Assembly (NCBI GenBank): GCA_964374065.1
Contig: CAYJWW010000002.1
Coordinates: forward strand, 4,153 to 68,152
Direction of reading: 5' to 3'
Length of the DNA stretch: 64,000 bases
Source of the DNA: an uncultured Candidatus Saccharibacteria bacterium
Lineage (GTDB): Bacteria > Patescibacteriota > Minisyncoccia > UBA6257 > 2-01-FULL-56-20
Shown here: positions 6,196 through 52,767 of the stretch, piece after piece
Layout of the letters: each line of letters opens with the position of its first letter
Numbering within the stretch: position 1 is the first letter of the stretch
Made by a program: the position numbers and the translations under genes
Notes under the pieces: generated by a model
The model's database searches: none
What the model saw: only the letters and a program-made list of their open reading frames with translations
What the model was told of the DNA's origin: nothing

Positions 6196-6216
6196 ACAGT
6201 AAGTTTAGCACATGAG

Positions 6217-6357: not shown

Positions 6358-6666
6358 TACCCTTGCTGCGATACAGCTGATACGCGGGAGGGTGTGGGAA
6401 TGGTTTTCCTGGGAGCCCCATAAGCTCCTGAAGCCGGTTCGATTCCGGCCCCCGCAAAATGTTTCAGCTTTTGTTTTCTGAGAACCGCTGTCGAATCGCT
6501 TCCGGTAAGCGATTCGCAGCTGCATCCCGGAGCGAAAATCCGCCTATGACGGAACCGAGCTTTTTGCTCCTCCGATAGCTTCTCGGAAAATAAAAGCTTC
6601 CGCGAATGGTGATCCCTTAGATTTGTGCTACACTGCGGCCAGTCTCCTTGACTACTCCTACACAAT

Positions 6667-13194: not shown

Positions 13195-13346
13195 GCTGCC
13201 CCTCCAGGCTAGAGAAAAATGTGAATTGCTGCCCCTAAGGTAGCGCCGATTGGGGTGCCTGTAAAGCAGGAGTAAATATCTTGCTTTGCTCGCTGATGCC
13301 GCCGTATACTTTTCGCAGTCCGTCTCATACCCACAAGGAGCGCTCC

Positions 13347-13757
13347 ATGTCCCAAACCGTCTCGCGCGGATTGCATACCGCCGCACGTTGGCGAACGCCC
13401 GCGCTCGCGCTCGCCGAACATCTCTCTCCGAAGAACCGAGGTCCGGTTCCGCAAGGAGCGGTCGCCGCCATCGAGCAGTTCTTCGATTGGGTGACTGCGG
13501 AAATCTCGCGGGGCGGGGGCGCAAAACTTTCTCGAGAGATCCCCCTCATGGGAGCCGTGTGCGCGTTGGGCATCGCGCGCGAAACCGCCGCACGCATGAA
13601 CGTGCGAAGCGCTACCATTCACCAGATTGACAGGCTCGCTCGAAGGTGCCGCTCGGTACTTCGAAAAGTGAATGCCGGTTCGCCGCTCTCGAACGCCGAG
13701 AAGCGCGAACTGCGCCGATTCCTGAACGCCCTTGCCGAGGAAGGCCTCGCTGCCTAG
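13347..13757 (+). CDS. hypothetical protein
   Basis: 137-aa ORF preceded by a strong SD AAGGAG 8 nt upstream of the ATG. No recognisable domain. Confidence 0.4.
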   Translation: MSQTVSRGLHTAARWRTPALALAEHLSPKNRGPVPQGAVAAIEQFFDWVTAEISRGGGAKLSREIPLMGAVCALGIARETAARMNVRSATIHQIDRLARRCRSVLRKVNAGSPLSNAEKRELRRFLNALAEEGLAA

Positions 13758-14583: not shown

Positions 14584-17470
<2,887 letters not shown>

Positions 17471-17516
17471 TGCAGTTTGGATTTTATCTCTAATTCTGGA
17501 TTCCATTTTCTAGATT

Positions 17517-18035
17517 CTATGTATCGAGCGTCCTCGGACTCACAGTAGTCTGTAGGTGAATAACGCTCTCGTCAACGCCGCGCTCTCGCGCGCTCACGCC
17601 CAAATTTATGACGATCCGCGGCTGCACGTTATCCCCGACCGCATTGCCGATCGGCCGGAAGGTCAGATAGCGGATATTCACGTTGTCGGCCGTGATCCGC
17701 GCGAAGGCGCCTCCTCCAACCCGCCGCTCGATCCCTCCGTCGGATACCCCGCCTCCTTTCCTGTATGTAACGACTTCACCTGCGGCATTTTTGAACGCAA
17801 GCTCATTTGAGGTGCACGTCTGACCGTTCACGCAGAAGTCAAACCCGGTCCGGACCTCCCGATTCATCTGCTCGAGCGCCAAGCTCATATTGCTGTTCGC
17901 GGAAAGGAGCGCTGAATTCTGGCGTTGCGTTTTAAGCGCGTTCACGAATCCGCCGACCGCGATCGTCACGCCAACCGAAAAAAGCGCGATCGCGACGAGC
18001 AATTCCACGAGCGTAAAGCCGCGGCGGCGTTCCAT
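17517..18035 (-). CDS. type IV pilin-like protein (minor pilin or pseudopilin)
   Basis: Class III signal MERRRG|FTLVELLVAIALFSV with cleavage Gly, Phe+1 and Glu+5; 172 aa. Confidence 0.75.
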   Translation of the reverse strand: MERRRGFTLVELLVAIALFSVGVTIAVGGFVNALKTQRQNSALLSANSNMSLALEQMNREVRTGFDFCVNGQTCTSNELAFKNAAGEVVTYRKGGGVSDGGIERRVGGGAFARITADNVNIRYLTFRPIGNAVGDNVQPRIVINLGVSARERGVDESVIHLQTTVSPRTLDT

Positions 18036-18079: not shown

Positions 18080-19372
18080 CTACGGCCTGATCTCTTTTAA
18101 TTTCCCTCCGCTTGATTCAAACGCTCGAACTGTCGTCGTGGCTGTCGCGTTCGCGCCGCCCCCCTGCCCCGCGCACGTGATCGTATAGGTGGTGGATTGG
18201 GTGGGCTGTACGGTCGTCGTGCCGTTCGCGGGGACGGAGCCGACCGCGGGAGCGATGGCGCAGGAAGAGACGCGTTCGCAGGTCCAGGAAAGGGTGGAGG
18301 ACTTGGGGGGCGGGATCACGAGGCGGTCGGGGAAGGCGGTGAAGCTCGTGCATGTGGGGGCGCAGTCCGAGGCGCGGTCGCACTCGTTGGGGCCGGAGCC
18401 GGGGATCGTGGCGCAGGAGTTGAACTGGCAGACGCGCTTCGTGCAGAGGGGCACCCGGAAGGAGGTGCTTGGGCTGTGGGCGCCGTTGAAGACTCGGGCA
18501 TAGTAGGTCACGCCGGGCTGGAGCGAGAGCGTGTCCGACTGCTGGGGCCAGATGCCCCTGAAGTTCTCTCCGTTCGTCGATTGGGAGAGAGACTGCTTGT
18601 TATAGAAGGAACCGAAGCCCGGGTCGTCGTCGATGTCCACGTAATAGCCGAAGCCGGGGTTGGGGCTGCCGGACCAGGAGATCGCGATCTGGTCGTTGTA
18701 CGGAGAGACGGTGCAGGCGGGGAGGCCGGAGACCGTGGGGCCGGAGGGAGCGTAGGAGCCTTGGGAGTAGTAGGAACCCTGGGAGTAGCCGGGAGCGTAG
18801 GTGCCTTGGGAGTAGTAGGAGCCTTGGTAGGAGCCCTGTGAGTAACCGGGAGCGTAGGTGCCTTGGGCGTAGTAGTACCCCTGGGCGTAGTAGTAACCTT
18901 GGGTGTAGTAGTACCCCTGGGCGTAGTAGTAGCCCTGGGCGTAACCGGGAGCGTAGGTGCTTTGGGCGTAGTAGTACCCCTGGGCGTAGTAATAGCCTTG
19001 GGTGTAGTAGTACCCCTGAGCATAGTAGTACCCTTGGGCGTAATAATATCCTTGGCTATAGTAATAACCCTGGCCGTAGTAATAACCTTCGGCGTAGGCC
19101 GGAGGGGGGGCGCACGCGCAATCCTGGCCAGATTGGCAATATGAGCCGCCGCACGGTTCGATATCCCAAGGCTTGTCTTCGCAATAGGGCTCGCCGTAGT
19201 CGCAGCTGCATTGAAATGATCCGAGTGGATAGCATGCGCCCTGCGGTGGGTTGACGGTCGGATCGCAATAGCCCTGCGATTCGCACGTAACCCATGTAGC
19301 CGCGAGGAGCGCATGGGGCACGCCCGCCAAAGCAAGGAGAGCAAGAACAAAAATAACGCGATCTGGTTTCAT
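18080..19372 (-). CDS. secreted Cys-rich protein with (QGYYY[AST])n Tyr/Gly repeats and two C-terminal FN3/Ig-like domains (paralog A)
   Basis: 430 aa with signal peptide MKPDRVIFVLALLALAGVPHALLA, a Cys-rich N-terminal region, about 20 GYYYAQ-type repeats, and a C-terminal ~285 aa identical to paralog B. Confidence 0.7.
   Translation of the reverse strand: MKPDRVIFVLALLALAGVPHALLAATWVTCESQGYCDPTVNPPQGACYPLGSFQCSCDYGEPYCEDKPWDIEPCGGSYCQSGQDCACAPPPAYAEGYYYGQGYYYSQGYYYAQGYYYAQGYYYTQGYYYAQGYYYAQSTYAPGYAQGYYYAQGYYYTQGYYYAQGYYYAQGTYAPGYSQGSYQGSYYSQGTYAPGYSQGSYYSQGSYAPSGPTVSGLPACTVSPYNDQIAISWSGSPNPGFGYYVDIDDDPGFGSFYNKQSLSQSTNGENFRGIWPQQSDTLSLQPGVTYYARVFNGAHSPSTSFRVPLCTKRVCQFNSCATIPGSGPNECDRASDCAPTCTSFTAFPDRLVIPPPKSSTLSWTCERVSSCAIAPAVGSVPANGTTTVQPTQSTTYTITCAGQGGGANATATTTVRAFESSGGKLKEIRP
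18084..18942. repeat. direct repeat copy 1 (about 859 bp, essentially 100% identical to 20853-21711)
   Basis: The ORF-track artefact ORFs 18117-18383, 18189-18503 and 18197-18841 have translations identical to those at +2769. Flanks were checked by eye. Confidence 0.9.
18760..19095. repeat. in-frame tandem array of about 18-nt units encoding GYYY[AST]Q within paralog A
   Basis: Reiterated gcgtagtagta(c/g)cc(c/t)tggg units on the plus strand. Confidence 0.8.
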
Positions 19373-19929
19373 TGATTGGAAGGATATGCGGTGATTGAAA
19401 AACTCGTGGAGCTTGCTTCTTGAGCGAGAACCATATCGACACGCACAAGGAAACTCTCGTCTTGAATGACGAGGACTGCCGAATCCTTCGTGTTCCTTCC
19501 CTCCCGAAATTTATACCCAGCGCCCGCCGCCAATCCTCTCACTTGATCGCGCGCCCCTACCACGTCCGAAGCGAGTCTCACAAACACGACGTAGCCCCTC
19601 TTACCATCTTCAAATGTCGCCGAGAATGCTTGGGTTGATGTCCCATTCCCCGGAACGAGCGCGAGGAGCGAATTCGGGGCGGCATCCAAACCGACCTCCA
19701 TCCTATTTAAAACTTTTGGCATCTGGGTTTTCCCTACGCTCTGAAGAAGATCTACGGATTTTGTCGGGGAAAGCGGCGCATCGGCTGAACCTTTCGGGTT
19801 CGAATTTTTGACCGGCAATCCTCCTTGAATGCGAAAAATGAGATAGATGACCGCCGCGGCTGCGATCAGTCCGATAACAATCGTGGTCTCTTTTTGCTTT
19901 CCGCCGGACGCTTTTTGAAGCTCGAGCAT
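19369..19929 (-). CDS. membrane-anchored hypothetical protein, translationally coupled to repeat protein A
   Basis: 186 aa with an N-terminal TM helix (IVIGLIAAAAVIYLIF). Its stop overlaps the start of 18080..19372 by 4 nt. Confidence 0.5.
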   Translation of the reverse strand: MLELQKASGGKQKETTIVIGLIAAAAVIYLIFRIQGGLPVKNSNPKGSADAPLSPTKSVDLLQSVGKTQMPKVLNRMEVGLDAAPNSLLALVPGNGTSTQAFSATFEDGKRGYVVFVRLASDVVGARDQVRGLAAGAGYKFREGRNTKDSAVLVIQDESFLVRVDMVLAQEASSTSFSITAYPSNQ

Positions 19930-20006: not shown

Positions 20007-20750
20007 CTAGTCCGGAACCCAGACGGTTTTGCCGGACACGGCGTACGCGACCTGCGAAGGGTCCGTGTTTTTGATCACGCCCCACCAGATCCCGGCAGGA
20101 CTTCGGGAGAGCCGCACATCCGGCGGGTTTCCCGTCATCGTCCCCCATGTCCACCCGGTGAACTGGGTACAAGCGGGCCCGAAAGCGCTTCCCGATCCGC
20201 GGGAACCCTCCGGGATGAGCGCGCAGGCTCTCGCATCCTCCTCTCGTGCAAAGAGGTAGAGGTCCTTCCGGATCGGAGAGCGGCTCGTAATCAGTTGGAA
20301 CTTGAGCGTCCCCCGTTCCACGGCCGGTGTCGCCGGAAAAACCATGGCTCCGCCAGCCGCAAGCGTCGTTGTGGGAATTACGGTCTCGAACGGATTTTCC
20401 GCAACGACGGGGGCAAGCGCTACATTCTGTTCCGAGGCAGGAATGGTAAGAGTCCAATCCTGAGTCACGAATCCGGGCTTTTCGAACTGGATCCTGCTCT
20501 CGCCTCCCGGAACCCCGCTTATGACGTATCTCCCGTCAGATGCGGTCTTCGCAGCAAGTCCCATGCCGGCGCCGGAGACGAGAGACACGTTTACCTCGCC
20601 CAGCGGTTCGTTCGTCGCGGCGCTCCGCACTATGCCGCGCACCTCATGAAACTGCGTGGGGCTTGTCGGACCATCTTTTCTGCCGCACGCGGTCAAGGCC
20701 GCGAGAAGCAGAACGGCGCGTATCGCGTGCAAGCGCATTCTTGTCCTCAC
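20007..20750 (-). CDS. lipoprotein with a carboxypeptidase-regulatory-like (CarboxypepD_reg) beta-sandwich domain
   Basis: Lipobox LAALTAC, motif DGRYVISGVPGGESRIQFEKPGF; SD AAGGAGG lies upstream. Confidence 0.6.
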   Translation of the reverse strand: MRTRMRLHAIRAVLLLAALTACGRKDGPTSPTQFHEVRGIVRSAATNEPLGEVNVSLVSGAGMGLAAKTASDGRYVISGVPGGESRIQFEKPGFVTQDWTLTIPASEQNVALAPVVAENPFETVIPTTTLAAGGAMVFPATPAVERGTLKFQLITSRSPIRKDLYLFAREEDARACALIPEGSRGSGSAFGPACTQFTGWTWGTMTGNPPDVRLSRSPAGIWWGVIKNTDPSQVAYAVSGKTVWVPD

Positions 20751-20842: not shown

Positions 20843-22375
20843 CTACTGTCCGGGCCTGATCTCTTTTAATTTCCCTCCGCTTGATTCAAACGCTCGAACT
20901 GTCGTCGTGGCTGTCGCGTTCGCGCCGCCCCCCTGCCCCGCGCACGTGATCGTATAGGTGGTGGATTGGGTGGGCTGTACGGTCGTCGTGCCGTTCGCGG
21001 GGACGGAGCCGACCGCGGGAGCGATGGCGCAGGAAGAGACGCGTTCGCAGGTCCAGGAAAGGGTGGAGGACTTGGGGGGCGGGATCACGAGGCGGTCGGG
21101 GAAGGCGGTGAAGCTCGTGCATGTGGGGGCGCAGTCCGAGGCGCGGTCGCACTCGTTGGGGCCGGAGCCGGGGATCGTGGCGCAGGAGTTGAACTGGCAG
21201 ACGCGCTTCGTGCAGAGGGGCACCCGGAAGGAGGTGCTTGGGCTGTGGGCGCCGTTGAAGACTCGGGCATAGTAGGTCACGCCGGGCTGGAGCGAGAGCG
21301 TGTCCGACTGCTGGGGCCAGATGCCCCTGAAGTTCTCTCCGTTCGTCGATTGGGAGAGAGACTGCTTGTTATAGAAGGAACCGAAGCCCGGGTCGTCGTC
21401 GATGTCCACGTAATAGCCGAAGCCGGGGTTGGGGCTGCCGGACCAGGAGATCGCGATCTGGTCGTTGTACGGAGAGACGGTGCAGGCGGGGAGGCCGGAG
21501 ACCGTGGGGCCGGAGGGAGCGTAGGAGCCTTGGGAGTAGTAGGAACCCTGGGAGTAGCCGGGAGCGTAGGTGCCTTGGGAGTAGTAGGAGCCTTGGTAGG
21601 AGCCCTGTGAGTAACCGGGAGCGTAGGTGCCTTGGGCGTAGTAGTACCCCTGGGCGTAGTAGTAACCTTGGGTGTAGTAGTACCCCTGGGCGTAGTAGTA
21701 GCCCTGGGCGTAGTAGTAGCCTTGGCTGTAGCCGCAACCGTAGCAGCCCTCCGCATAGTAATAGCCTTGTCCGTAGTAATAGCCCTCTGTGTAGTAATAC
21801 CCTTGGGCATAGTAATAGCCCTCAGCATAGTAGTAGCCTTGAGTATAGTAGTAGCCTTGAGCATAATAGTAGCCCTCCCCATAATAGTAGCCTTCGCTGT
21901 AGTCTGGATAGAAGCCGGTGATGCTCACATCCACCCGCACTTCGGCGTCATCCACGGCCGCCCATGTATAAATCCCGTATCTTCCGACTCCTCCTGTCCC
22001 CTCGCTTCCGCTTGTATACCCGTTGTACGGATGGACCCCTCCATACTCGTAGCCGCAACTGCCCCCAGAGCAGTTGAACCAATAGCACTGCCCCGCGCCG
22101 TCGGACTGCCGGGACCAACACGCGACGGACTGAATATACGAACCGCCGTGGCGATGGCCGCTTATATTGTAGGAAAATTCCGCGGAACCGTAGTTGTCCC
22201 GCGGGAGCCACTCCCAATTCCCGCCGCAATTTCTATCGTCTCCGTGCTTGATGCAAAGCCAATAAAAACTCGTGCTGTCGCTCCCCGCGCGCGCCACGTA
22301 GGGCACGGCGATCGACATCGCCACCGCGGACACTGCGACGAATATCAGTGCTACCTTGGTCTGCGCGGTATTCAT
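20843..22375 (-). CDS. secreted protein with (QGYYY[AST])n Tyr/Gly repeats and two C-terminal FN3/Ig-like domains (paralog B)
   Basis: 510 aa with signal peptide MNTAQTKVALIFVAVSAVAMSIAVPYVARA, a distinct N-terminal domain, a long EGYYYAQGYYYT... repeat array, and a C-terminal ~285 aa identical to paralog A. Confidence 0.7.
   Translation of the reverse strand: MNTAQTKVALIFVAVSAVAMSIAVPYVARAGSDSTSFYWLCIKHGDDRNCGGNWEWLPRDNYGSAEFSYNISGHRHGGSYIQSVACWSRQSDGAGQCYWFNCSGGSCGYEYGGVHPYNGYTSGSEGTGGVGRYGIYTWAAVDDAEVRVDVSITGFYPDYSEGYYYGEGYYYAQGYYYTQGYYYAEGYYYAQGYYYTEGYYYGQGYYYAEGCYGCGYSQGYYYAQGYYYAQGYYYTQGYYYAQGYYYAQGTYAPGYSQGSYQGSYYSQGTYAPGYSQGSYYSQGSYAPSGPTVSGLPACTVSPYNDQIAISWSGSPNPGFGYYVDIDDDPGFGSFYNKQSLSQSTNGENFRGIWPQQSDTLSLQPGVTYYARVFNGAHSPSTSFRVPLCTKRVCQFNSCATIPGSGPNECDRASDCAPTCTSFTAFPDRLVIPPPKSSTLSWTCERVSSCAIAPAVGSVPANGTTTVQPTQSTTYTITCAGQGGGANATATTTVRAFESSGGKLKEIRPGQ
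20853..21711. repeat. direct repeat copy 2 (about 859 bp)
   Basis: See copy 1; the constant offset is 2769 nt. Confidence 0.9.
21530..21905. repeat. in-frame tandem array of about 18-nt units encoding GYYY[AST]Q within paralog B
   Basis: Reiterated gtagtagta(g/c)cc(c/t)tg(g/a)g(c/t) units on the plus strand. Confidence 0.8.
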
Positions 22376-22884
22376 TCCCTCGAAGGCGGGGTGATGATGC
22401 GATATGTCACTACCGATGCGACCGGGTTGCTCGACCGGTATATCGTTGCGGGGAATGCCGCCTCAACGGAGACGCCGCCGGCGCCGATCATGGACCGGAG
22501 ATCATCCAAGGACCCTGTGGCATCATTCCGCGGGAGGTCGGCCAGACTCAAGGTGCCGGTCGCGCCGCGCGCGGCAAGCTCTTTCCATGAAGGAAGTTGA
22601 AGCCCGATCTTTTTATACGAGGTCCCTTCCCCGACGCGGAAGGTAAACTCCCGCGATTCCAGGAGATCTTGCGGCGCAACGCCCTGCAGCTCGTAGACGC
22701 CCTTCAGCGTAATCGCGTCGCCCTCTATTCTCAGGGGGCTTCCGATGAATTTTCTGATCTCTATCGGTTTTCGCGTCGAAACAAAATAGCCGCTTCCGAT
22801 CAGGAACAATCCGGCGGTTGCGGCGGCCACCATCACAAGATTCCGCACCGCCAGCTTCTTCTTCGATGCCGCGAAATCATCCAT
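22372..22884 (-). CDS. membrane-anchored hypothetical protein, translationally coupled to repeat protein B
   Basis: 170 aa with an N-terminal TM helix (LVMVAAATAGLFLIGSGYFV). Its stop overlaps the start of 20843..22375 by 4 nt. Confidence 0.5.
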   Translation of the reverse strand: MDDFAASKKKLAVRNLVMVAAATAGLFLIGSGYFVSTRKPIEIRKFIGSPLRIEGDAITLKGVYELQGVAPQDLLESREFTFRVGEGTSYKKIGLQLPSWKELAARGATGTLSLADLPRNDATGSLDDLRSMIGAGGVSVEAAFPATIYRSSNPVASVVTYRIITPPSRE

Positions 22885-23658: not shown

Positions 23659-24198
23659 CTAGTTCTGCGGCCGCCAATTGAAGAAATGGTCCTCGAGATT
23701 GATGTCGTATTCTCCGCCGCGGCTTGACCAAGAAACAATGGAGTTCACCTTGATCTCGTTCCCGCCCACGAGTGCGACGCGGATGGTCCGCGTAAAGGGC
23801 GTCACGACCGAACCGCCGTAGCTGTAGAGGTTCTGCGACGGATCGAAAAGGAGGAACCTGCTCTGCGTCGCTTCCAAGAGCGCGCTTGCATACTGCACTT
23901 CGAAATCCCCGTTCGAGAAACCGCTGTTCCACGGGCGGTTCTGGATTACGTTCGTATCGATGATATTCTTCACCACCTCGAGTCCCTCGGCCGCGAGATA
24001 CGTCGCAGTGTAATTATCGGATACGACGCGATTCAGGCTGATCGAACGCGAAAGAAGAGTGAGAATGCCCAAAAAGCCGACGGTCAAAATCCCCAGCGCG
24101 ACGAGCGATTCGACGACGACTTGCCCCCGGCGCGCCCGTCGGCGCGCAGAAAATGGAAAATAGAAAGCGGAAAGCGGAAAACGGCGCGTTTGTTCCAT
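23659..24198 (-). CDS. type IV pilin-like protein with a long basic leader (MEQTRRFPLSAFYFPFSARRRARRG|QVVVE...)
   Basis: Gly-Gln junction with Glu at +5 followed by a hydrophobic helix; 179 aa. Its 5' module is shared with 17048..17470. Confidence 0.55.
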   Translation of the reverse strand: MEQTRRFPLSAFYFPFSARRRARRGQVVVESLVALGILTVGFLGILTLLSRSISLNRVVSDNYTATYLAAEGLEVVKNIIDTNVIQNRPWNSGFSNGDFEVQYASALLEATQSRFLLFDPSQNLYSYGGSVVTPFTRTIRVALVGGNEIKVNSIVSWSSRGGEYDINLEDHFFNWRPQN

Positions 24199-24254
24199 TG
24201 CAGTTTGGATTTTGTCTCTAATTCTGGATTCTATTTTCTAGGCTCTAGATTCTA
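24124..24254. repeat. conserved ~125-nt 5' module, copy 2
   Basis: Same sequence as copy 1 with a 7-nt internal duplication (tctaggctctag). Confidence 0.85.
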
Positions 24255-24821
24255 AAATGTGATCTGCCCCGCCGTGCTTACCCGGATCGTTATCGAGGCC
24301 GACCCGTCCGCGGTTTGGAGATAAATATTCCCGCTCCCTCCCGGCAATAGCGACCCCCCGCTCGAGATGTATGTTTTTGGTTCCGGCGGCACAAAGAGCA
24401 CCGCGTCGAGCCGGTTCGCTCCGTTGCCGTACGCCACGGCCTGAGTCAACGGGAACGATTCGAGCCTGGTGTATTTGGAACCGTCGGCGGGGTCGATCGC
24501 GGAAATGCTCGAGCAGTCGCTCACCTTATATTGGAACAGTTCGTATGAGTTCCCGGCGTAGTCGACTCGGAAACCGAACCCACAGGGACGCGAGGCATCC
24601 ACATAGGTGGCAATCGCCATCGATTTGGACTTCAGGATCAGCTGCGCGATCTTTGCTTCTTCGGTATAGAGCGCAACCTGCGCGCGCCCCGTCGACGAGT
24701 AGAGAATGAGCGAACTCGAGAGGATGCCCATGATGCCTACGACGATCAGAAGTTCGAGGAGCGTGTAGCCGCGGCGAGAAGAACGGAAGTTTTGGCGTGG
24801 AATTCGGCGGAATGCGCTCAC
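24252..24821 (-). CDS. type IV pilin-like protein (pseudopilin)
   Basis: SSRRG|YTLLELLIVVGIMGIL class III signal; 189 aa. Confidence 0.75.
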   Translation of the reverse strand: MSAFRRIPRQNFRSSRRGYTLLELLIVVGIMGILSSSLILYSSTGRAQVALYTEEAKIAQLILKSKSMAIATYVDASRPCGFGFRVDYAGNSYELFQYKVSDCSSISAIDPADGSKYTRLESFPLTQAVAYGNGANRLDAVLFVPPEPKTYISSGGSLLPGGSGNIYLQTADGSASITIRVSTAGQITF

Positions 24822-24855: not shown

Positions 24856-25656
24856 TTACCACAGTCCGCCAAAAAGCATCTGCGCGATCTGATTGCCGAA
24901 AAGAAAGACGATGAGCGCTGCGAGAGAGAGGAATGGCCCGAAGGGAAGCGCCGTTTTCCGCGTTGCCCGACCGCCGGTCATCATGCCGAGCCCAATGACC
25001 GCTCCCAATATGAAGGCGAGCATTAGAATAAAGGGGGTTGCCGGCCAGCCGAAAAGCAATCCCAGCGCCGCGCCGAATTTCACGTCCCCCATGCCCATCC
25101 CCTTCCCCCGCGTCGCCGCGATAAGCGCTCCGAAAAACGCCGCCGCGAAAATCGCGCCGTAGATGCGGGGGATGATACTCCCGAGGATGCCGCTTCCTCC
25201 GCCCGTAAGCGCGAGAAACGCGGCGAGAACCCCGAGAAAAATGACGAGCTCGTCGGGAATGAGCCGCAGCCGCAGATCGATGAGTGAAATGAGGAGCAGT
25301 ATAAGGAACACGAGGAGCCAGAAAAACTGCGGAATGGCCGCGGCCGCTCCGAATGAAACGCGGGCCGCGACCGCGTGGGGTATGACCACAAAAAGCGCGC
25401 CGGCGATGATCTCGACGAGCGGATAGGCAAAAGAGAGCCGTTTTTTACATCTGCGACATTCCCCTTTCTGCGCGAGGAAACTCAAAAGCGGAATGAGCTC
25501 GAACCAGCGAAGCGTGCGGCGACATGAGGCGCACGCCGATCTTCCGAACACGATGTCCCGCCGGATTATGAAACGGTCCGGATCGTACCGATCGGCGATG
25601 ACCTTAAGGAAACTCCCGACGGCCGCACCAAGGAAAAATTGCAGAACGTAAGTCAC
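24856..25656 (-). CDS. pilD: prepilin peptidase (A24 family)
   Basis: N-terminal CxxC...CxxC zinc-binding pairs, 8-TM topology and the GMGDVKF catalytic Asp motif; 266 aa. Confidence 0.85.
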   Translation of the reverse strand: MTYVLQFFLGAAVGSFLKVIADRYDPDRFIIRRDIVFGRSACASCRRTLRWFELIPLLSFLAQKGECRRCKKRLSFAYPLVEIIAGALFVVIPHAVAARVSFGAAAAIPQFFWLLVFLILLLISLIDLRLRLIPDELVIFLGVLAAFLALTGGGSGILGSIIPRIYGAIFAAAFFGALIAATRGKGMGMGDVKFGAALGLLFGWPATPFILMLAFILGAVIGLGMMTGGRATRKTALPFGPFLSLAALIVFLFGNQIAQMLFGGLW

Positions 25657-25716
25657 GAATAAAAAATCAAATCGGGGCTCGCGCCCTGACTATGACATTC
25701 CTGTGCGCGCTCGACC

Positions 25717-26187
25717 CTAGAAAATGATGCAGTAGATCGTATCGGATGCCGCCGTGCCGCAATCGGTGTTCCCGTAGTTCGATTGCGTGCCGTCGATATC
25801 CGTCCGGAGCGCGGGGTTGTTCCCGTCTTCGAGGTCGGCTCTCAGAAGGTACCCGTTGCGGCTCGTGTTCGGCGCATAGGTGTAATTCCTATTCGAGTTA
25901 GGATCGTTAGGAATCTTGTTCACGCCAATCGTGGCGCTCACAAGGTCGGTCTCAAGCGCCGCCCACGTGGCCGAGTTCGGGTATTGGCCGTTCTTCTGGA
26001 AGTAAAGCTCCAGCGCGGTCTGTACCTGTTTCAAGTCCGCAATGCGCCGCGCGTCCCGGCCAGTCCGCTGGGTGGGGCCCAGCCCCACGAGCACGATCGA
26101 CGCCAGAACACCGATGATCGCGACCACGATCAGCATTTCGATGAGCGTAAACCCCTGCTTCTGCTCCGAATTTTTCATCGCTTTCAT
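25717..26187 (-). CDS. type IV pilin (probable major pilin)
   Basis: MKAMKNSEQKQG|FTLIEMLIVVAIIGVLASIV is a canonical class III signal. Start chosen at M15 of the 170-aa ORF. C-terminal Cys pair (TDCG...YCIIF). Confidence 0.8.
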   Translation of the reverse strand: MKAMKNSEQKQGFTLIEMLIVVAIIGVLASIVLVGLGPTQRTGRDARRIADLKQVQTALELYFQKNGQYPNSATWAALETDLVSATIGVNKIPNDPNSNRNYTYAPNTSRNGYLLRADLEDGNNPALRTDIDGTQSNYGNTDCGTAASDTIYCIIF

Positions 26188-26304
26188 TGTACGTTTTATC
26201 ATACCATACCGCCAATCGTTCTTTTCCACAGCCCCTCCAGCCTGGAACCTGAAACCCGGAACAGGATACGAAAGGTGCGGTTTTACGAACTATGTCCTGC
26301 TTCG

Positions 26305-26353
26305 TGATTCACGATTCACGATTCAGGATTCAGGATTCAGGATTCAGGATTCA
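26305..26353. repeat. tandem heptanucleotide repeat (GATTCAS)x7 between the pilC stop and the pilin gene
   Basis: gattcac x2, gattcag x4 and gattcat x1, perfectly contiguous, about 120-165 nt upstream of the pilin start codon on the coding strand. Confidence 0.9.
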
Positions 26354-26358
26354 TGGCC

Positions 26359-27570
26359 CTACTGGATCGTCGCCGTAAGCTGATAGAGCGGCAGAAGAAT
26401 AGAGGCGAAGAGGAGGGCGATGAGCCCGCCGATGCCGATCATGAGGATCGGCTGGATAAGCTCGACCAGATTGTTGATCACGGTATCCGACTCCCTGTTA
26501 TAGAACGTGGCGATCCGGAGGAAAATCTGGTCCAGCTGTCCGGTCGCTTCTCCCACCGCGACCATTTGGGAGACAAGCTGGGGGAAATAATCGGGGTGCG
26601 CGGCGATCGCTTCCGAGAGGAGTTTCCCCTGCCGCACGCCCTGGGAAACATCGTGAAGCATATCCCTATAGAGGACGTTATCCACTGTCTCCGCCACGAT
26701 CTCCATCGCTTGCGCGACGGGCACTCCGCCCTTCACGAGCATCGCCGAAGCGTTCGCGAACCGCGCGATGGTCACGGGAAGGTATATTCGGCTGATCACC
26801 GGCAGGCGCACCTTCATATCGTCCTTGAACCCCATCCCTTCCGGCGTCTGGAAGTAGTCAAGGATCATCACGACGGAAATAATGATGACGAGGACGATCG
26901 CGGGCCACCAGCGGGCGAAGAAATCGCCGCTCCCTATCAAGACCTTGCTGATCAGCGGGAGTTGCACGCCCGATTGATCGAAAACCGGCTGTATCTGCGG
27001 GAACACCATCGTCACCATAATCACCGCGACGACGAGAAAGAGCGAGACGACGATCGCGGGGTAGATGAGCGCCGAGCGCGCCTTGGTGACAAGCACCGCT
27101 TCGCGTTCGGTGTAATCCGCGAGGAAGCCGGCGACTTGGTCCAAATTCCCCGTAACCTCCGCGGACCGGACCATGCTCACGAAGAATTCGGAAAATATCC
27201 CCCCTTGCCGCTCGAGCGCCTGCGAAAAAGCGAGCCCTGCATCAATGTCCGTCGCGATCTGGTAGACCGCCTCTTTGAGTATTGGATTCGTCGTCTGATC
27301 GTGGAGCGTCGTGAGCGCCTTGTTGAGCGATAGCCGCGCCTCGAGCAGCGTGGCGAGCTGCCGAGTGAGGATGACCATATCCTGCCTCCGAACGGCGCGG
27401 TAATAGCGCGCGATCCGGTCGTACCAGTGAGTCGTCTCGGTAGATTCGAGCTTGAGGATATAGAGGTCGTGGCTGGATAAGATGTTGACCGCGGCATCCT
27501 TCCCCCCGGCTTCCACAAAACCCACCTGAAGTTCTCCCTCCTTGGTTTTCGCTTGATATTTGAATTTCAT
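26359..27570 (-). CDS. pilC: type IV pilus assembly platform protein (GspF/PilC family)
   Basis: 403 aa; duplicated T2SF domains and three TM segments. Confidence 0.85.
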   Translation of the reverse strand: MKFKYQAKTKEGELQVGFVEAGGKDAAVNILSSHDLYILKLESTETTHWYDRIARYYRAVRRQDMVILTRQLATLLEARLSLNKALTTLHDQTTNPILKEAVYQIATDIDAGLAFSQALERQGGIFSEFFVSMVRSAEVTGNLDQVAGFLADYTEREAVLVTKARSALIYPAIVVSLFLVVAVIMVTMVFPQIQPVFDQSGVQLPLISKVLIGSGDFFARWWPAIVLVIIISVVMILDYFQTPEGMGFKDDMKVRLPVISRIYLPVTIARFANASAMLVKGGVPVAQAMEIVAETVDNVLYRDMLHDVSQGVRQGKLLSEAIAAHPDYFPQLVSQMVAVGEATGQLDQIFLRIATFYNRESDTVINNLVELIQPILMIGIGGLIALLFASILLPLYQLTATIQ

Positions 27571-27577
27571 GCGCCCG

Positions 27578-28651
27578 CTACACTCTTTCGAGCAGGATCC
27601 GCAGCTCTCCTGGATTCAGCGAATAGAGCTCCGCGCTCTCCATCGAGATCTCTTTGCTCTTGATAAGGTTCACGAGCGAGCGGTTCAGGGTCATCATCCC
27701 CTCCTGAAGAGACGTTTCGATCACGAGGTCGATCTGGTAGACCTTCCGCTCGCGGACCAGGTTCCGGATCGCGGCGTTCACGATCATGATCTCCATCGCG
27801 GGGATCCGGCCGCCCGAGAGGCGCGGCATGAGCCGGATCGAGACGATCGCGACCAAGGTCGCCGCGAGCTGGGAGACCACCTGCCCCTGCTGTTCGGCGG
27901 GGAAGGAATCGATGATGCGGTCGATCGTCTGCGAGGCGGAATTCGTGTGGAGCGTGGAGAACACCAAGTGTCCGGTCTCCGCCGCGGTCATCGCGGTCGA
28001 GATGGAGATCGCGTCGCGCATCTCGCCCAACATGATGACGTCCGGGTCCTGCCGCAAGATCGTGCGGAGTCCCGCTTGGAACGTCGGCACATCCACTCCC
28101 ACTTCCCGCTGGGAGACGATCGCCCTGTCCTGCGTGAAGAGATATTCTATCGGGTCTTCGATCGTGATGATGTGGTCCGCGCGAGCGTGGTTGATCTCAT
28201 CCAGAAGCGCCGCGAGCGTCGTGGACTTCCCGTGGCCGGCGGGTCCCACGACGAGAATGAACCCTTGCGAAAGCTTTGCGAAGTCGTGGAGGATCGGCGG
28301 AAGCATGAGTTCCTCGAGGCTGCGGATCCTCCCCGGGATCAGCCGGAGCGCCGCGGCCGGATAGCCGCGCTGGTAATAGACGTTCACGCGGAACCTTGCC
28401 TTATCTTCGAAGCTGTATGCAAAATCGATCTGCTTGTTCTTTGAAAGCTTTTCTTTTTGGTCGTCATTCAGCAAAACCGTGATGAGTCCTTCGGCGCCCT
28501 CCGGAGTGAGCAGTTCTTCCTTCTGTATCGGAACAAGCACGCCGTCGATGCGGAGCATTGGGCGCCTCCCCACCGAAAGGTGGAGGTCCGAAGCGTTCTG
28601 TTTCGCCGTGGTTACCAACAGCTCTTTTAATCTTTCTGCGTAGTTCGTCAT
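27578..28651 (-). CDS. pilT: twitching-motility (retraction) ATPase PilT
   Basis: Walker A GPAGHGKSTT, PilT Asp box, His box; 357 aa. Confidence 0.85.
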   Translation of the reverse strand: MTNYAERLKELLVTTAKQNASDLHLSVGRRPMLRIDGVLVPIQKEELLTPEGAEGLITVLLNDDQKEKLSKNKQIDFAYSFEDKARFRVNVYYQRGYPAAALRLIPGRIRSLEELMLPPILHDFAKLSQGFILVVGPAGHGKSTTLAALLDEINHARADHIITIEDPIEYLFTQDRAIVSQREVGVDVPTFQAGLRTILRQDPDVIMLGEMRDAISISTAMTAAETGHLVFSTLHTNSASQTIDRIIDSFPAEQQGQVVSQLAATLVAIVSIRLMPRLSGGRIPAMEIMIVNAAIRNLVRERKVYQIDLVIETSLQEGMMTLNRSLVNLIKSKEISMESAELYSLNPGELRILLERV

Positions 28652-28680
28652 ATCAGTTCAATTGTTCCATCATAACACAA

Positions 28681-30414
28681 CTACCCGAGAATATTTTCTT
28701 CGGTGCTTCGGAACACCTCCTCCATCGCCACTTGTCCTTCGAGCGCCTTCAGCACGCCGTCGCCGCGAAGATCGATCATCCCCTGCGCTTTCGCTTCCTT
28801 CAAGATTTTCTGCAGCGAGGGCGCGGATTGGATGACTGCTTCGAGTCCGGGTGTCATCTGGAGCACCTCATAGATCGCGATGCGTCCTACGACTCCCCGA
28901 TTATTGCATTTCGCGCAACCCTCGGCGTGAAATATCATGTACGGTTCCTTGTATTTTCCCGCCAGCTCCGGAGGGAGCCCTTCCAACGCCTTGCGGATCG
29001 CCTGCGCGAGCGGAGGAGGCGCTTCGTCTGAGCGTTTACAGCCCGGGCATAGAAGTCCCACCAGCCGCTGAGACAGCAAAAGATTCAAAGTCACGGGCAG
29101 CAAGAACGGCTCTATTTTCATGTCCAAGAGGCGCGGGATCACGCCGGCGGCATTATTCGTGTGGAGCGTGGAAAGCACGATGTGGCCCGTGAGCGCCGCC
29201 TGCACGGCGAGCGCCGCCGTCTCGTTGTCGCGGATCTCGCCCACCATTATCACGTCCGGGTCCTGCCGCAAAATCTGCCGCAGGCCGGAAGCGAAATCGT
29301 ACCCGATCTCGGGACGCACTTGCGACTGATTCACGCCCGACACGAAATATTCCACCGGATCTTCGAGGCTCACGATATTCACGTTCTCCTTGTTTAGCGT
29401 CTGCAGGAGCGCGTAGAGCGTCGTGGTCTTCCCGGAACCGGTGGGGCCGGTGATCAAGATCATACCGAAGGGTTTTTCGAGGCCGGCCTGGACGATCTCT
29501 AAGTTTTTGCCTACGAGCCCCAAGTCATTGAAGCTTTTAAGGCCCGTTGTGGGGTCGAGCACTCGAATCGCGACTTTTTCGCCCAAGGGCGTAGGGAAAG
29601 TTGCGACGCGGAAATCCACTTCGCGGTCGAGTATCCGCGCGCGGAATCGTCCGTCCTGCGGGACCCGCGTCTCATCGATCTTCAGGCTCGAGAGCACTTT
29701 GATGCGCGAGACGACCGGTTGCGCCAACTGGAGCGGCAGCGCCGCGCCTTCCTGCAAATCTCCGTCAATCCGGAACCTGATCCGGAGGTGCGTTTGCTGC
29801 GGCTCTATATGAATGTCGGATGCGCCATTCTGCGTCGCTTCCTTAAGCGTATCTGAGACGATCTTGATAATCGGCGCTTCTTCCCCGCCTTTCATTGACT
29901 CGTCCTCGAGTTGAACGATCCGCCTTCCCGCCTCGCCTTTCACTTGCACGGAACGGACCGCGGCTTCGATGGAACTTTTATACGGAGAGTATCGCCGGAG
30001 AATCTCCTGCCAATCGCCCCACCCGATGAGATATATGCCCAAGGTAACGCGCGAACGGTTCGCGATGAACTTAAGGGCTTCCTGGGCCTTTACATCGTCG
30101 GGGTTCACCATCCCCGCGATAAGCATTTCCCCCTGCTGCGCCAAGGGCGCCACCCCGTATGTTCTCACCGTTTCCTCGGGGATCAATTCGATAACCTTGG
30201 GATCGTATCCCTCGAAGTTTACTTTTTGGTAGGGCACACCGAGTATCTGGCTTTTGACCTCGGCGATTTTCGCATCATCCAGAAGCCCTCGGTCATGGAT
30301 CAGGTCTTCCGCGCTCCTGCCGGAGAGGAGCGCTTCTCGCTTCAGCTTGACAATAGCGTTCGGTTCGAGAAGTCGCCGCGATTGGAGTTCATTGAAGAGC
30401 TGGTCGGAGGTCAT
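28681..30414 (-). CDS. pilB: type IV pilus assembly (extension) ATPase PilB/GspE
   Basis: 577 aa; GSPII-E N-domain, Walker A GPTGSGKTTT and a tetra-Cys motif CPGC...CAKC. Confidence 0.85.
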   Translation of the reverse strand: MTSDQLFNELQSRRLLEPNAIVKLKREALLSGRSAEDLIHDRGLLDDAKIAEVKSQILGVPYQKVNFEGYDPKVIELIPEETVRTYGVAPLAQQGEMLIAGMVNPDDVKAQEALKFIANRSRVTLGIYLIGWGDWQEILRRYSPYKSSIEAAVRSVQVKGEAGRRIVQLEDESMKGGEEAPIIKIVSDTLKEATQNGASDIHIEPQQTHLRIRFRIDGDLQEGAALPLQLAQPVVSRIKVLSSLKIDETRVPQDGRFRARILDREVDFRVATFPTPLGEKVAIRVLDPTTGLKSFNDLGLVGKNLEIVQAGLEKPFGMILITGPTGSGKTTTLYALLQTLNKENVNIVSLEDPVEYFVSGVNQSQVRPEIGYDFASGLRQILRQDPDVIMVGEIRDNETAALAVQAALTGHIVLSTLHTNNAAGVIPRLLDMKIEPFLLPVTLNLLLSQRLVGLLCPGCKRSDEAPPPLAQAIRKALEGLPPELAGKYKEPYMIFHAEGCAKCNNRGVVGRIAIYEVLQMTPGLEAVIQSAPSLQKILKEAKAQGMIDLRGDGVLKALEGQVAMEEVFRSTEENILG

Positions 30415-30487
30415 AATTAAATAAGCCTTGAGCGCGTGCGTTCAGCCTATAGTCTACGACACTTTCCCGGCTGCGAACAGCTTGGAG

Positions 30488-30781
30488 CTACTGCCCAAGG
30501 AACGGGTTCAGTTTCCCCATATCGCGCGGGATGGACGGGGTGATATACGGCTTCAAGGCTTGAAAACGAGGGTCGTTCACTACATCCTCCGGACTCAAAT
30601 CGATATTCAGGAGCTTTTCCGTGCTCCGGAAGTTCGCCGGCGCCGCAATCTCGATGAGCGTGGGTTTCTTGAAGAAAATATAGTACGCGGCCGCGGCAAT
30701 AATGGCTACGATAACAAGCCAGATCAGAAAGTTCATGAGCATCCCTTTGTCTTTCCCTTCTTCGCTGATGACGATTGCCAT
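30488..30781 (-). CDS. small membrane protein (hypothetical; possibly a pilus assembly accessory protein)
   Basis: 97 aa with one TM helix (LIWLVIVAIIAAAAYYIFF), lying between pilO and pilB. Confidence 0.4.
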   Translation of the reverse strand: MAIVISEEGKDKGMLMNFLIWLVIVAIIAAAAYYIFFKKPTLIEIAAPANFRSTEKLLNIDLSPEDVVNDPRFQALKPYITPSIPRDMGKLNPFLGQ

Positions 30782-30789
30782 GGTGGTAT

Positions 30790-31374
30790 CTACGGGTTCT
30801 GGTAGTATGTCACGACCGCCATGTCGTAGGCGAAGAGATCCTGGTTGGGCTTTCCGGCCGGCTGCACAGTGATCGTCCGCAGATCGAAGATGCGGATGTT
30901 CGTTTCGACGTTCTTCAGAAACTTTTTCATATCGTCATATGCGCCCACGAGGCGCATCTGGATCGTCAGCATGCCGATCGGTTTTATGAGAGTATTCGCG
31001 TCTTTGGGGTCGCTCCCCTTGAGATTCTGGAACGCTTCGGTGGAGACCGCGAATGATTGGGGCACAAGCCCGTTCGCCGTCGCCATGCCGCTCAACTGTG
31101 CGATCGCCTGCGCGGCTTCCGGCTTAAGCGGCAGCACCAGAGAAACGACTTCCTGGATCTTTTCGTTGCCTTGGTACGCGCTCACCAGCTGCTTCACTCG
31201 CTCGATCACTTCCCGCTGTTTCCCGACGAACGCGCGGCGGCTCGCCTCCTCTCCCCGAATCCGCAGCGATTCCTGATATGCGGGCTGGATGAAATCGAAG
31301 AACAGCACGAATGCCGATACGATGAACACAAGGGCGAGCACCGAACTGAAAAGCCGCTTGGTGGATTGTTTCAT
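30790..31374 (-). CDS. pilO: PilO-like pilus assembly protein
   Basis: 194 aa with an N-terminal TM helix and coiled-coil. Assigned by its position after pilM and pilN. Confidence 0.5.
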   Translation of the reverse strand: MKQSTKRLFSSVLALVFIVSAFVLFFDFIQPAYQESLRIRGEEASRRAFVGKQREVIERVKQLVSAYQGNEKIQEVVSLVLPLKPEAAQAIAQLSGMATANGLVPQSFAVSTEAFQNLKGSDPKDANTLIKPIGMLTIQMRLVGAYDDMKKFLKNVETNIRIFDLRTITVQPAGKPNQDLFAYDMAVVTYYQNP

Positions 31375-31967
31375 TGGTTCGTTGAGGTTGCCGCCGTTAC
31401 GCCATCCGTTTCCGGCGACGCACCCTTAAAAATACCGGGCTTCAAAAATACCGAGAGGTCGAATTGCCACAGGCCCGCGTTTCCCAGGGTCATGCTGTTT
31501 AAATTCACTCGATCCACTTCTGCTTGCTGTTCCAAAAACCCGGTTTGTTCCGCAATGTCGTTCGCCGATTTCGCGGTCCCTCCAAGTGAAAGCTCTCGAC
31601 CGCCGACATTCAGCACGAACTTCGTGTACGTGACGTTCTTATGCGTTGAACGCTCGAGCCAATCGAAAAGCGGGGAGGCGAGCGCGTGCCGGTCGAGAAG
31701 CGTCTTCAGGTTCGCGAGCTGGGAATAGAACGCGATGATCTTCGCCTGATCGTCAAATGGAATTTCCTGGCTGAACGTCTGAATTTGCAGGTCAAGCTTG
31801 TCGACCATGGACTGAAGGAAAGGTCCGTATCCGAACACGAGCCCGATGTGCACGAAAAGCGCGATAAGGAATATCGTCCCCGAAAACATAAGAAGCCGGC
31901 TCGACCACCCGGGGGTACGAACCGGCTCCCGCGCAAGTTGCTCGATGGCTTTTGGAGGAAGTGGCAT
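31371..31967 (-). CDS. pilN: PilN-like pilus assembly protein
   Basis: 198 aa with a short cytoplasmic N-terminus, TM helix and periplasmic coiled-coil. Overlaps pilM and pilO by 4 nt each. Confidence 0.5.
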   Translation of the reverse strand: MPLPPKAIEQLAREPVRTPGWSSRLLMFSGTIFLIALFVHIGLVFGYGPFLQSMVDKLDLQIQTFSQEIPFDDQAKIIAFYSQLANLKTLLDRHALASPLFDWLERSTHKNVTYTKFVLNVGGRELSLGGTAKSANDIAEQTGFLEQQAEVDRVNLNSMTLGNAGLWQFDLSVFLKPGIFKGASPETDGVTAATSTNQ

Positions 31968-31968
31968 G

Positions 31969-33087
31969 CTAAGAAAATTCTTTAAGTGCGAGTCCCAACG
32001 CGACGCTCATCGACGGGTTGAGCTCCCCGACAAGCGGCTCGATGACGGGAGCGTACTCGAACCGGAGGAACGGGGTCGCTTTCACGGTGGGCATCCCGAA
32101 CTGCTGCGCCGCATATTTCTCGATGCCCAGTAGATTTGCTCCGCCGCCCGAGAGTATCACGCGTTCGATTCGAGGCACGGAAACCAGCTGGTTCGCATAG
32201 TTGACCAGCGCCCGCTTCACCTCCCCAATGATAACATCCAGAAAAGGCAGCATTATTGTGGATAACTCGTAATCTGCGCCCGATCCTGATATGCCTCGCT
32301 CGCGCTTGAGTTCCTCCGCACGGAGCGGATTGATATTCAGGCTCGAGGCAAGCGCTTGCGTAAGCGATGCGCCCGCATAATCGGTCTGCGCAGTGTATTT
32401 GAGCTGTCCCTTATCCACGACCGCGATTGCGGTGGATCGGCTTCCTATATCTACGATGCACGTAGGCGTCGGGTCCGCTCCCACAAGGCTCCTTGCAAGC
32501 CCAAGCGCCTCGATCTCAAGCGACATGAGCGTAAGGCCCGCCGCGGAAAAAATCTTCTGATATTTACGGATCGTCTCCTGTGGAACCGAAATAAGAAGCA
32601 GCTGCTGCATGCGCGCGCCGGACGCGTCTTCATACTCGCCCACCTTAAGCCAATCTATCGCCACTTCGGATATGGGCAGAGGGATATACTGCTTCGCCTG
32701 ATAGGACATCGCCTCTCCGATCTCGCCCTTGGACATCTCGGGAAAGTTCAAAACCGTAATGAATGAAGCGAATCCGGGGAGCGACGCCACCACCGCGTTC
32801 GCCTTCGGCTTCATCCGGCGCAAGGCCTCCTTCAGATACTCGGCGATTTCCTGATCGAACAGCTTTAGGCTGCTCGTCTGGAACGCGGTGTTCGATCGAG
32901 TGAGCGATCCCTGACTCTCGAGAAATGCGTAATTCACGAGCCGCGGGAGCTCTTTCGCTTTGTCCACCTCGACGATTTTCAGCGAGGTCGTCCCTATATC
33001 GACGCCGAGGTAAGATGGCCTGATCTCCTGCTTGAGTATATTGAAGAAATTAATCGCCGAGAGCGGATTGCGCATTTCTTTACGCAT
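31969..33087 (-). CDS. pilM: type IV pilus assembly ATPase-fold protein PilM (actin-like)
   Basis: YLGVDIGTTSLKIVEV phosphate-1 motif and actin/FtsA-like fold length (372 aa). Confidence 0.8.
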   Translation of the reverse strand: MRKEMRNPLSAINFFNILKQEIRPSYLGVDIGTTSLKIVEVDKAKELPRLVNYAFLESQGSLTRSNTAFQTSSLKLFDQEIAEYLKEALRRMKPKANAVVASLPGFASFITVLNFPEMSKGEIGEAMSYQAKQYIPLPISEVAIDWLKVGEYEDASGARMQQLLLISVPQETIRKYQKIFSAAGLTLMSLEIEALGLARSLVGADPTPTCIVDIGSRSTAIAVVDKGQLKYTAQTDYAGASLTQALASSLNINPLRAEELKRERGISGSGADYELSTIMLPFLDVIIGEVKRALVNYANQLVSVPRIERVILSGGGANLLGIEKYAAQQFGMPTVKATPFLRFEYAPVIEPLVGELNPSMSVALGLALKEFS

Positions 33088-50266: not shown

Positions 50267-50271
50267 ATCTG

Positions 50272-50868: not shown

Positions 50869-50872
50869 CCGT

Positions 50873-51667: not shown

Positions 51668-51676
51668 CATGAATAT

Positions 51677-52763: not shown

Positions 52764-52767
52764 CAAA

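Follow-up and report, generated by a model that had tools for sequence, protein, structure and literature searches.

Two in-frame tyrosine-rich GYYYxQ arrays in a type IV pilus locus: a probable selected protein segment that changes at an evolutionary scale

Two genes on the minus strand of a 64-kb stretch of DNA (the window, i.e. the whole stretch analyzed) carry tandem arrays of an 18-nt unit that encodes the hexapeptide GYYYAQ. The locus raises the question of whether such arrays act as switches whose unit number changes quickly, or are the coding sequence of a peptide that is kept by selection. A preliminary description had viewed them as near-perfect units, prone to slipped-strand or recombinational change in copy number and hence a typical route to size variation of a surface protein. 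We analyzed the two genes, here called A and B, with their arrays, their neighbours (Table 1) and their relatives in other genomes and metagenomes. We consider that the arrays are the coding sequence of a selected Tyr-rich hexapeptide segment that changes at an evolutionary scale, and not by fast switching, with a probability of about 0.6.

Tandem Repeats Finder placed a period of 18 at 18864-19097 (13.5 copies, 72% matches, score 188) and a period of 99 at 18827-19043 (2.2 copies, 91% matches, score 364). At the second place, a period of 18 was found at 21521-21725, 21629-21876 and 21740-21892, with 68-77% matches. When the degenerate unit GTAGTAGTANCCYTGNGC was searched with up to 2 mismatches, all 19 matches in the window fell within array A or B, while 100 dinucleotide-preserving shuffles gave 0 matches. 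The letters of the plus strand show the arrays as their reverse complement; on the coding (minus) strand, the units read GGN TAY TAY TAY GCN CAR (GYYYAQ), in frame in both open reading frames (ORFs). The tandem arrays noted earlier at both places are thus real and lie within ~15 nt of the limits set by translation, and their in-frame 18-nt units were borne out, inside genes for signal-peptide-bearing proteins. On the other hand, the units are far from near-perfect. Their mean pairwise identity was 75-82% at the nucleotide level versus 79-90% at the amino acid level, and the longest exact internal repeat was 30 nt in array A and 27 nt in array B.

Array A contains 11 canonical GYYY[ATGS]Q units plus degenerate GTYAPGYSQ, GSYQ and GSYYSQ units, with a composition of Y 0.39, G 0.18, Q 0.15, A 0.11 and S 0.09. 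In array B, 13 canonical GYYYx[QE] units are broken by GCYGCGYSQ and joined by the same degenerate units as in array A, and Tyr makes up 40%. The peptide consensus of both is G-Y-Y-Y-[ATGS]-[QE], and in both the C-terminal third is degenerate (the units named above, with periods 27 and 45). We rejected the plus-strand ORFs that run over the arrays (e.g. 18838-19254 and 21632-22600) as by-products of stop-free repeats, because it is the minus-strand products that have signal peptides, conserved domains and homologues. The profile of the left-handed beta-helix Hexapep repeat ([LIV]-G-x4) gave no Pfam match in A or B at E <= 0.01.

The two proteins differ in front of the array and agree behind it. 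Protein A has a Sec-type signal peptide, an N-domain of ~70 aa with 10 Cys (~aa 26-95) and the Tyr array, followed by an FN3-like domain (~aa 205-320), a Cys-rich linker and an Ig-like domain (~aa 341-425). Protein B has a signal peptide, an N-domain of ~130 aa (aa 31-161) that is unrelated to that of A, its own Tyr array, and a C-terminal half, with FN3-like and Ig-like domains, that it has in common with A. In an AlphaFold2 (AF2) model, the FN3-like domain (aa 205-320 of A) had a predicted local distance difference test score (pLDDT) of 90-98; the best PDB matches of the model by Foldseek were FN3 tandems, with weak E-values of ~1e-3, and a profile of the domain likewise gave weak Ig/FN3 matches only in the PDB. 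An exhaustive HMMER search found ~70 relatives of this domain in diverse secreted multidomain proteins, none of which had Tyr repeats. The last ~85 aa of both proteins form a widespread bacterial Ig-like 'SxLxW...TTTYTLT' domain. The array was modelled with a pLDDT of 35-45 as short (4-residue) strands every 6 residues without a confident fold. Both proteins end in ...KLKEIRP(GQ), without an LPXTG motif and without a transmembrane segment. Searches of Pfam and NCBIfam with A, B and their partner proteins assigned no family, and a PDB sequence search with B gave no match. Scans with the shared C-terminal half gave only Ig-domain matches among GTDB representatives, in a Desulfobulbaceae metagenome-assembled genome, and no match in JGI metagenomes. 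The signal peptides and the FN3/Ig-like domains suggest that A and B are surface proteins, and both have the beta-sandwich FN3-like and Ig-like domains of bacterial adhesins.

We then asked what the codons of the arrays tell about their past. In the 7 distal units of A, positions that agree in amino acid also agreed in codon at a fraction of 0.459 (same-codon fraction), and random codon choice from genome usage gave an expectation of 0.465 (P = 0.50). Since the observed fraction is close to the random one, the synonymous sites of these units are saturated, which argues against frequent recent slippage. Pairwise comparison of the same units counted 60 synonymous versus 15 non-synonymous codon differences, in favour of selection on the peptide. 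The proximal part of the array, which A and B share, was more homogeneous, with a same-codon fraction of 0.727. These values bear on the idea of a contingency-type locus, in which frequent slippage or recombination would vary the unit number among cells and make a surface protein change rapidly in size or antigenicity. Of the properties of such loci, a unit that is a multiple of 3 inside an ORF was found here, but near-identical units were not: identity was limited to 75-82%, exact internal repeats did not exceed 27-30 nt and A's distal synonymous sites were at random expectation. The unit number in B's distal array was also constant. Contigs from two independent runs (L007 and L008) carry B's distal 8 units plus GCYGCGYSQ in the same number as the window, so that three assemblies agree; these unitig-style contigs cross the distal array without branching and break only at the start of the tract that is identical in A and B.

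Arrays of relatives gave a wider picture. They ranged from equally scrambled to very homogeneous, with same-codon fractions of 0.88-0.91 in L013 and L019 and exact repeats of up to 116 nt in L018. The N-domains of L019 and L021 were 92% identical up to the array, which has 4 versus 6 units, while their C-domains were unrelated; those of L013 and L022 were 84% identical, with 4 versus 7 units. The orthologue of B in the L012 lineage has 23 GYYY units versus 13 in B. The array family as a whole thus appears to expand, with the arrays of the window at its old, scrambled end. A comparison of repeat counts, which had been proposed earlier as a check of copy-number variation, therefore gave two answers: the count of B's distal array was the same in the window and in the contigs of 2 runs, and counts did differ among more distant relatives. 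The homogeneous arrays of some relatives are also the kind of evidence that a contingency locus would leave, and staphylococcal 18-bp R-domains are known to vary from 9 to 52 units among isolates (PMC6533592).

Traces of larger changes were found in the window itself. Array A holds two tandem 99-nt blocks that are identical at 91 of 99 nt, and array B has one such block. Genes A and B moreover share an 860-nt tract at 100% identity. Its upstream end lies inside the arrays, and beyond it the A and B sequences diverge abruptly; on the downstream side it is bounded by a 6-nt indel immediately ahead of the stop codon. Because the identical tract ends within the array, the array is probably a crossover point that joins different heads to one body. 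Direct repeats of 860 nt are a much stronger recombination substrate than 18-nt units. Recombination between them would delete or duplicate the head of A, the gene for a 186-aa protein and the gene for a CarboxypepD_reg lipoprotein, and would give copy-number variation at the level of the cassette.

Contigs from one other sample also pointed to change within the arrays. Contigs of run ERR3478686 differed from the window by 4 single-nucleotide polymorphisms (SNPs), all within the arrays, of which 321 nt were covered, versus 1 SNP and 1 indel in ~9150 nt outside; 3 of the 4 array changes turn the sequence into that of another unit, and all 4 lie no more than ~40 nt from contig ends, a zone enriched in assembly errors. 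Compared with a recombinant of array A that has lost 99 nt, the end of contig L001 showed 0 mismatches in 384 nt, versus 2 mismatches to the window, but a two-site conversion without length change fits it equally well, and the contig necessarily stops 30 nt past the last base that separates it from the path shared by A and B. The clustering of differences in the arrays and the fit of L001 to a deletion variant, at which it ends, would agree with a contingency locus, as do the in-frame units. Taken with the scrambled units and the constant unit number in B's distal array, we regard such a locus as quite unlikely. As recombination substrates, the arrays do appear to have undergone changes of whole units and blocks over evolution; rapid population-level size variation was not seen in the contigs compared.

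Contig breaks raise another possibility, namely that the arrays, or the two-copy 860-nt structure, come from mis-assembled repetitive reads or a non-coding repeat. Short-read assemblies indeed break in or beside the arrays (L001, L007, L008, L010 and L016), and 860 nt at 100% identity between neighbouring genes is unusual. However, independent Logan contigs from two runs agree to the base with the unique flanks and the distal array of B. They end at the points where a true two-copy repeat would force a de Bruijn graph to branch: both L001 and L009 begin 30 nt into the B copy, and L007 stops 30 nt past its last distinguishing SNP. The reading frame is intact across both arrays, and homologous arrays occur in many other assemblies. 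We hold an artefact of this kind to be very improbable.

In the reading that we prefer, selection would keep the peptide (G-Y-Y-Y-[A/T/G/S]-[Q/E])n, and the DNA repeat would be a by-product. The segment sits between a variable N-terminal head and a constant FN3-like and Ig-like C-terminal half. It may serve as a spacer or sticky stalk, of low complexity and probably without a globular fold, which would keep a binding head at a distance from the cell or pilus. The arrays would change now and then, by in-frame duplication or deletion of blocks and by template-driven exchange among units, and would double as joints where different heads meet the same C-terminal body. Such dynamics would be of an evolutionary scale, like those of staphylococcal 18-bp R-domains, and would not amount to high-frequency switching of the phase-variation type.

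The tyrosines could make a passive stalk, a sticky or self-associating segment, or oxidatively cross-linked material. Among Tyr-rich structural proteins, resilin, plant extensins and the Bacillus coat proteins CotC/CotU form cross-links at their tyrosines, and self-association is a property of FUS-type [G/S]Y[G/S]Q segments. A Tyr segment that exists for dityrosine or DOPA cross-links, cross-beta structure or phase separation, as part of a matrix or attachment glue, would fit the 39-40% Tyr with Gly and Gln as the other main residues, and also the 4-residue strands that AF2 placed every 6 residues with low confidence. At 10 or more other loci, GYYYxQ genes adjoin a conserved cluster that includes a cupredoxin-like protein, and this linkage is a lead for the cross-linking option. 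Nevertheless, the 64-kb window lacks the cupredoxin cluster and has no oxidase gene linked to the locus, and the cupredoxin-like proteins had no obvious Cys-His-Met type-1 copper site in the sequences examined. We consider cross-linking or self-association as the reason for the arrays a tentative and rather unlikely explanation.

The cupredoxin cluster, which is unannotated, has further features. It holds three families of N-anchored proteins of 330-420 aa with the motif Y[RA]P[AP]CY[DE]xEIPKL and paired Cys near the C-terminus, and occurs in contigs of the candidate phyla radiation (CPR) type at L004 11018-17084 and L006 119-4988, and also in L005, L011, L015, L018, L022-L025 and L028. Its proteins gave no Pfam match except Cupredoxin_1 and no PDB relative.

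Table 1. Features of the two array genes and of the surrounding type IV pilus locus (positions in the window)
Feature	Position	Strand	Remarks
Gene A	18080..19372	-	430 aa
Array A	18746..19087	-	aa 96-209 of protein A (limits by translation)
Two tandem 99-nt (33-aa) blocks, array A	18836..19033	-	18935-19033 and 18836-18934
860-nt identical tract, A copy	18084..18943	-	100% identical to B copy
Gene B	20843..22375	-	510 aa
Array B	21515..21892	-	aa 162-287 of protein B (limits by translation)
860-nt identical tract, B copy	20853..21712	-	direct repeat of A copy, 2769 nt away
186-aa N-terminally anchored membrane protein	19369..19929	-	stop overlaps gene A start (ATGA)
170-aa N-terminally anchored membrane protein	22372..22884	-	stop overlaps gene B ATG (ATGA)
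Lipoprotein, CarboxypepD_reg domain	20007..20750	-	lipobox LTAC; between the two modules
Putative lipoprotein, 210 aa	22937..23569	-	LGSGC; upstream of B module
Minor-pilin-like protein	17048-17506	-	downstream of A
Minor-pilin-like protein	17517-18035	-	N_methyl motif; downstream of A
Minor-pilin-like protein	23659-24198	-	weak PilV-like match; upstream of B module
Minor-pilin-like protein	24252-24821	-	N_methyl motif; upstream of B module
PilD	24856-25656	-	
Major pilin	25717-26229	-	
PilC	26359-27570	-	
PilT	27578-28651	-	
PilB	28681-30414	-	
PilO	30790-31374	-	
PilM	31969-33087	-	

Genes A and B are each translationally coupled, by a start/stop overlap, to a small membrane-anchored partner (Table 1). 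A promoter-like site was noted at 19965-19937, upstream of the 186-aa gene. We rejected the idea that the 186-aa and 170-aa partners are paralogues, as BLASTP showed no homology between them, and an AF2 model of the 170-aa partner from its single sequence was uninformative (pLDDT 41). The core type IV pilus genes extend over 24856..33087 on the minus strand, and four minor-pilin-like genes bracket the A and B modules, so that both are set within the minor-pilin part of the pilus locus. The cluster is complete except for a secretin gene, of which none was seen. Because of this placement, which is conserved for the B-type module in a second and distant genome, the gene order suggests a role of A and B as pilus-associated adhesins. 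Homology to the C-terminal beta-propeller of PilY1 was not found with Pfam or NCBIfam, and the model has FN3/Ig-like domains only.

Two of the minor-pilin-like genes, 17048-17506 and 23659-24198 (both minus strand), share a 129-nt direct repeat (17391-17519 and 24119-24247, 88-92% identical), which covers their common 5' coding end and upstream region; the N-termini of their products are alike and run into (C/R)GQV.

The remaining window looks like ordinary chromosome, with genes for PheT, MurD, GatA, DnaB, LigA, Ddl and polysaccharide synthesis. Some features there were noted in passing. A UDP-glucose/GDP-mannose dehydrogenase gene at 41268-44069 (+) is split by an intein with a LAGLIDADG endonuclease domain, and the GC content drops to 0.49. 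Inside the polysaccharide-synthesis region, the GC content of 50000-54000 is as low as 0.47-0.49, versus ~0.57 elsewhere, and this stretch may have been acquired horizontally. Two divergent tRNA-Met (CAT) genes lie ~100 nt apart at 6216-6289 (-) and 6385-6457 (+); ARAGORN called both, and the list at the Rfam gathering threshold has only the first. In the DnaB helicase at 11617-13524 (-), ~180 additional N-terminal aa precede the DnaB N-domain, for which the Pfam match begins at residue 181.

An exhaustive search together with a degenerate DNA-pattern scan of metagenomes identified roughly 30 distinct secreted proteins with GYYYxQ or [S/G]xYY[S/A]Q arrays, and GYYYxQ arrays were found at 21 metagenome loci with diverse architectures. 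Elsewhere the array is combined with a beta-helix-like head and a Cys-rich tail, with Ig-like domains or with a Hint-like domain, and P0117 is a type IV pilin with a YY-Q repeat array fused at its C-terminus. In nearly all cases, a gene for a small N-anchored protein lies directly ahead of the array gene, at -3 to +10 nt. Since the named relatives of the repeat proteins belong to Ca. Spechtbacterales and Parcubacteria, the repeat genes of the window are likely of Patescibacteria origin. A viral origin was rejected, with no match in a phage database and no motif match in a scan of viral contigs.

The closest relative of module B was found in the L012 lineage (GC 41%). Its 175-aa partner protein is 42% identical to the 170-aa protein of the window (E 2e-32) and precedes a B-type gene, and the L012 array protein shares the N-domain of B (aa 31-161) at 42-43% identity. 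The pair of partner and array genes directly adjoins pilB, pilC and a pilin gene in this lineage, and in L005 the partner of the array gene is itself a pilin. A pilus link as a general property of the module was nevertheless rejected, as it was seen only in the window, the L012 lineage and L005.

Other layouts were observed among the array genes. At L004 5511-10923 (Ca. Spechtbacterales), two tandem Tyr-array paralogues each follow a gene for a small N-anchored protein and precede homologous genes, the same layout as that of the tandem modules in the window. Several Tyr-array proteins share the C-terminal motif P-x-F-x-E-[FI]-COOH right after the Ig-like domain (PFFLEI in L010/L012, PRFEEF in L015, PAFEEI in L026, PRFFIF in P0093 and PEFQEF in P0097), a possible signal for sorting or docking; the proteins of the window have another C-terminus (...RAFESSGGKLKEIRP). 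In L023 (4043-5439) and L024 (5361-6335), the GYYYxQ array comes straight after the signal peptide and is followed by a domain with the motif GSGTFVIDHPLDPxNKLLYHSFVESP, and L023 has an array-less paralogue of this domain just upstream.

Several points weigh against our view that the arrays encode a selected and slowly changing segment of a pilus-associated surface protein. The population evidence consists of short contigs that end in or near the arrays, where assembly errors are enriched, and the comparison of arrays between samples covers the parts outside the proximal stretch shared by A and B. Synonymous scrambling does not preclude strain-level length variation in staphylococcal R-domains (PMC6533592), so that 'slow' is to be taken in a relative sense. 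The low confidence of AF2 over the array is not proof of disorder, and the signal peptides of A and B were called by eye, without a predictor. The affiliation with the CPR has indirect indications only. The link to the pilus is lineage-specific and not a property of the module, because most of the other GYYYxQ loci adjoin the cupredoxin cluster. The reading as a whole was built from sequences and models, with the expression and localisation of A and B being predicted.

Ultrasmall Patescibacteria live attached to other microbes, and type IV pili have been implicated in finding and binding the host. To our knowledge, their adhesive components are mostly unknown. Proteins A and B offer a concrete candidate, with interchangeable heads, a common body and a joining repeat of 40% tyrosine. 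No Pfam or NCBIfam model covers the module, which is found again in many secreted proteins without annotation and therefore provides a handle for annotating part of the microbial dark matter. For assembly, the arrays and the 860-nt identical tract are places where short-read assemblies break and where between-sample variation concentrates. A broader proposal would make GYYYxQ a new class of Tyr-rich extracellular module, widespread in Patescibacteria, always with a small membrane-anchored partner and in many genomes linked to the cupredoxin cluster, that forms a cross-linked or self-associating episymbiotic adhesive and was recruited here to a type IV pilus, with the arrays as recombination joints for head swapping; we think it speculative and doubtful. 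A literature search with the motif strings, or with tyrosine-rich together with Patescibacteria and pili, found nothing relevant. Neither the GYYYxQ module nor the partner gene coupled to it seems to have been described before, and the same applies to the role of the module as a joint for swapping heads within a pilus locus.

Among known systems, the alpha C protein of group B Streptococcus and the Vlp lipoproteins of Mycoplasma are size-variable proteins with in-frame repeats, whose length changes, without a shift of frame, when units are lost or gained. Such arrays hardly differ in nucleotide sequence from unit to unit, and they vary within populations. The window differs from them, with units that are 75-82% identical and no within-population length variation in the contigs compared. 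As for the peptide, FUS-family and other prion-like [G/S]Y[G/S]Q domains, resilin, extensins and CotC/CotU resemble the arrays in being Tyr/Gly/Ser/Gln-rich and of low complexity; for the FUS type, the likeness is one of composition and not of homology. In the FUS family and in Tyr-rich cross-linked proteins, Tyr is the functional residue for self-association or cross-linking. Unlike these, the repeat of the window is strictly periodic, with three consecutive Tyr and ~40% Tyr overall, and belongs to a bacterial, predicted extracellular protein in which it is flanked by adhesin-type beta-sandwich domains.

The setting of A and B recalls PilY1 of Pseudomonas and PilX1/PilX2 of the Saccharibacteria TM7x, which are likewise large proteins with accessory domains, encoded among minor-pilin genes and without a canonical PilD-type prepilin signal (PMC11623550). 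They are proposed host-binding components (PMC11623550); for A and B, association with the filament and a part in adhesion are predictions from gene placement. There is no similarity in sequence or fold to the beta-propeller of PilY1/PilX2 or the jelly roll of PilX1, and A and B have FN3/Ig-like domains and a Tyr array instead.

The R-domains of staphylococcal ClfA, ClfB and Sdr proteins and of S. lugdunensis Fbl have an in-frame 18-bp unit that encodes a hexapeptide or three dipeptides (PMC6533592), as do the arrays of the window with their hexapeptide. The ClfA/Fbl R-domains are made of imperfect units in many variants with mostly synonymous differences, which holds for the window arrays as well, and yet their number varies widely among strains (PMC6533592). 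In the staphylococcal proteins, and as predicted in those of the window, the segment separates the ligand-binding head of a secreted adhesin from the part nearer to the cell; it functions as a stalk in the staphylococci (PMC6533592) and probably in the window. The copy number of the R-domains varies among strains and was stable over 30 laboratory subcultures (PMC6533592); for the window, variation was seen in comparison with relatives. The differences lie in the peptide, which is Tyr/Gly/Gln-rich versus Ser/Asp-rich, in the anchor, since A and B are without an LPXTG sortase signal and would be held, if at all, by the coupled membrane protein or the pilus, and in the organism, probably a CPR bacterium versus staphylococci. 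As a DNA phenomenon, the dynamics of these repeats are of a known kind.

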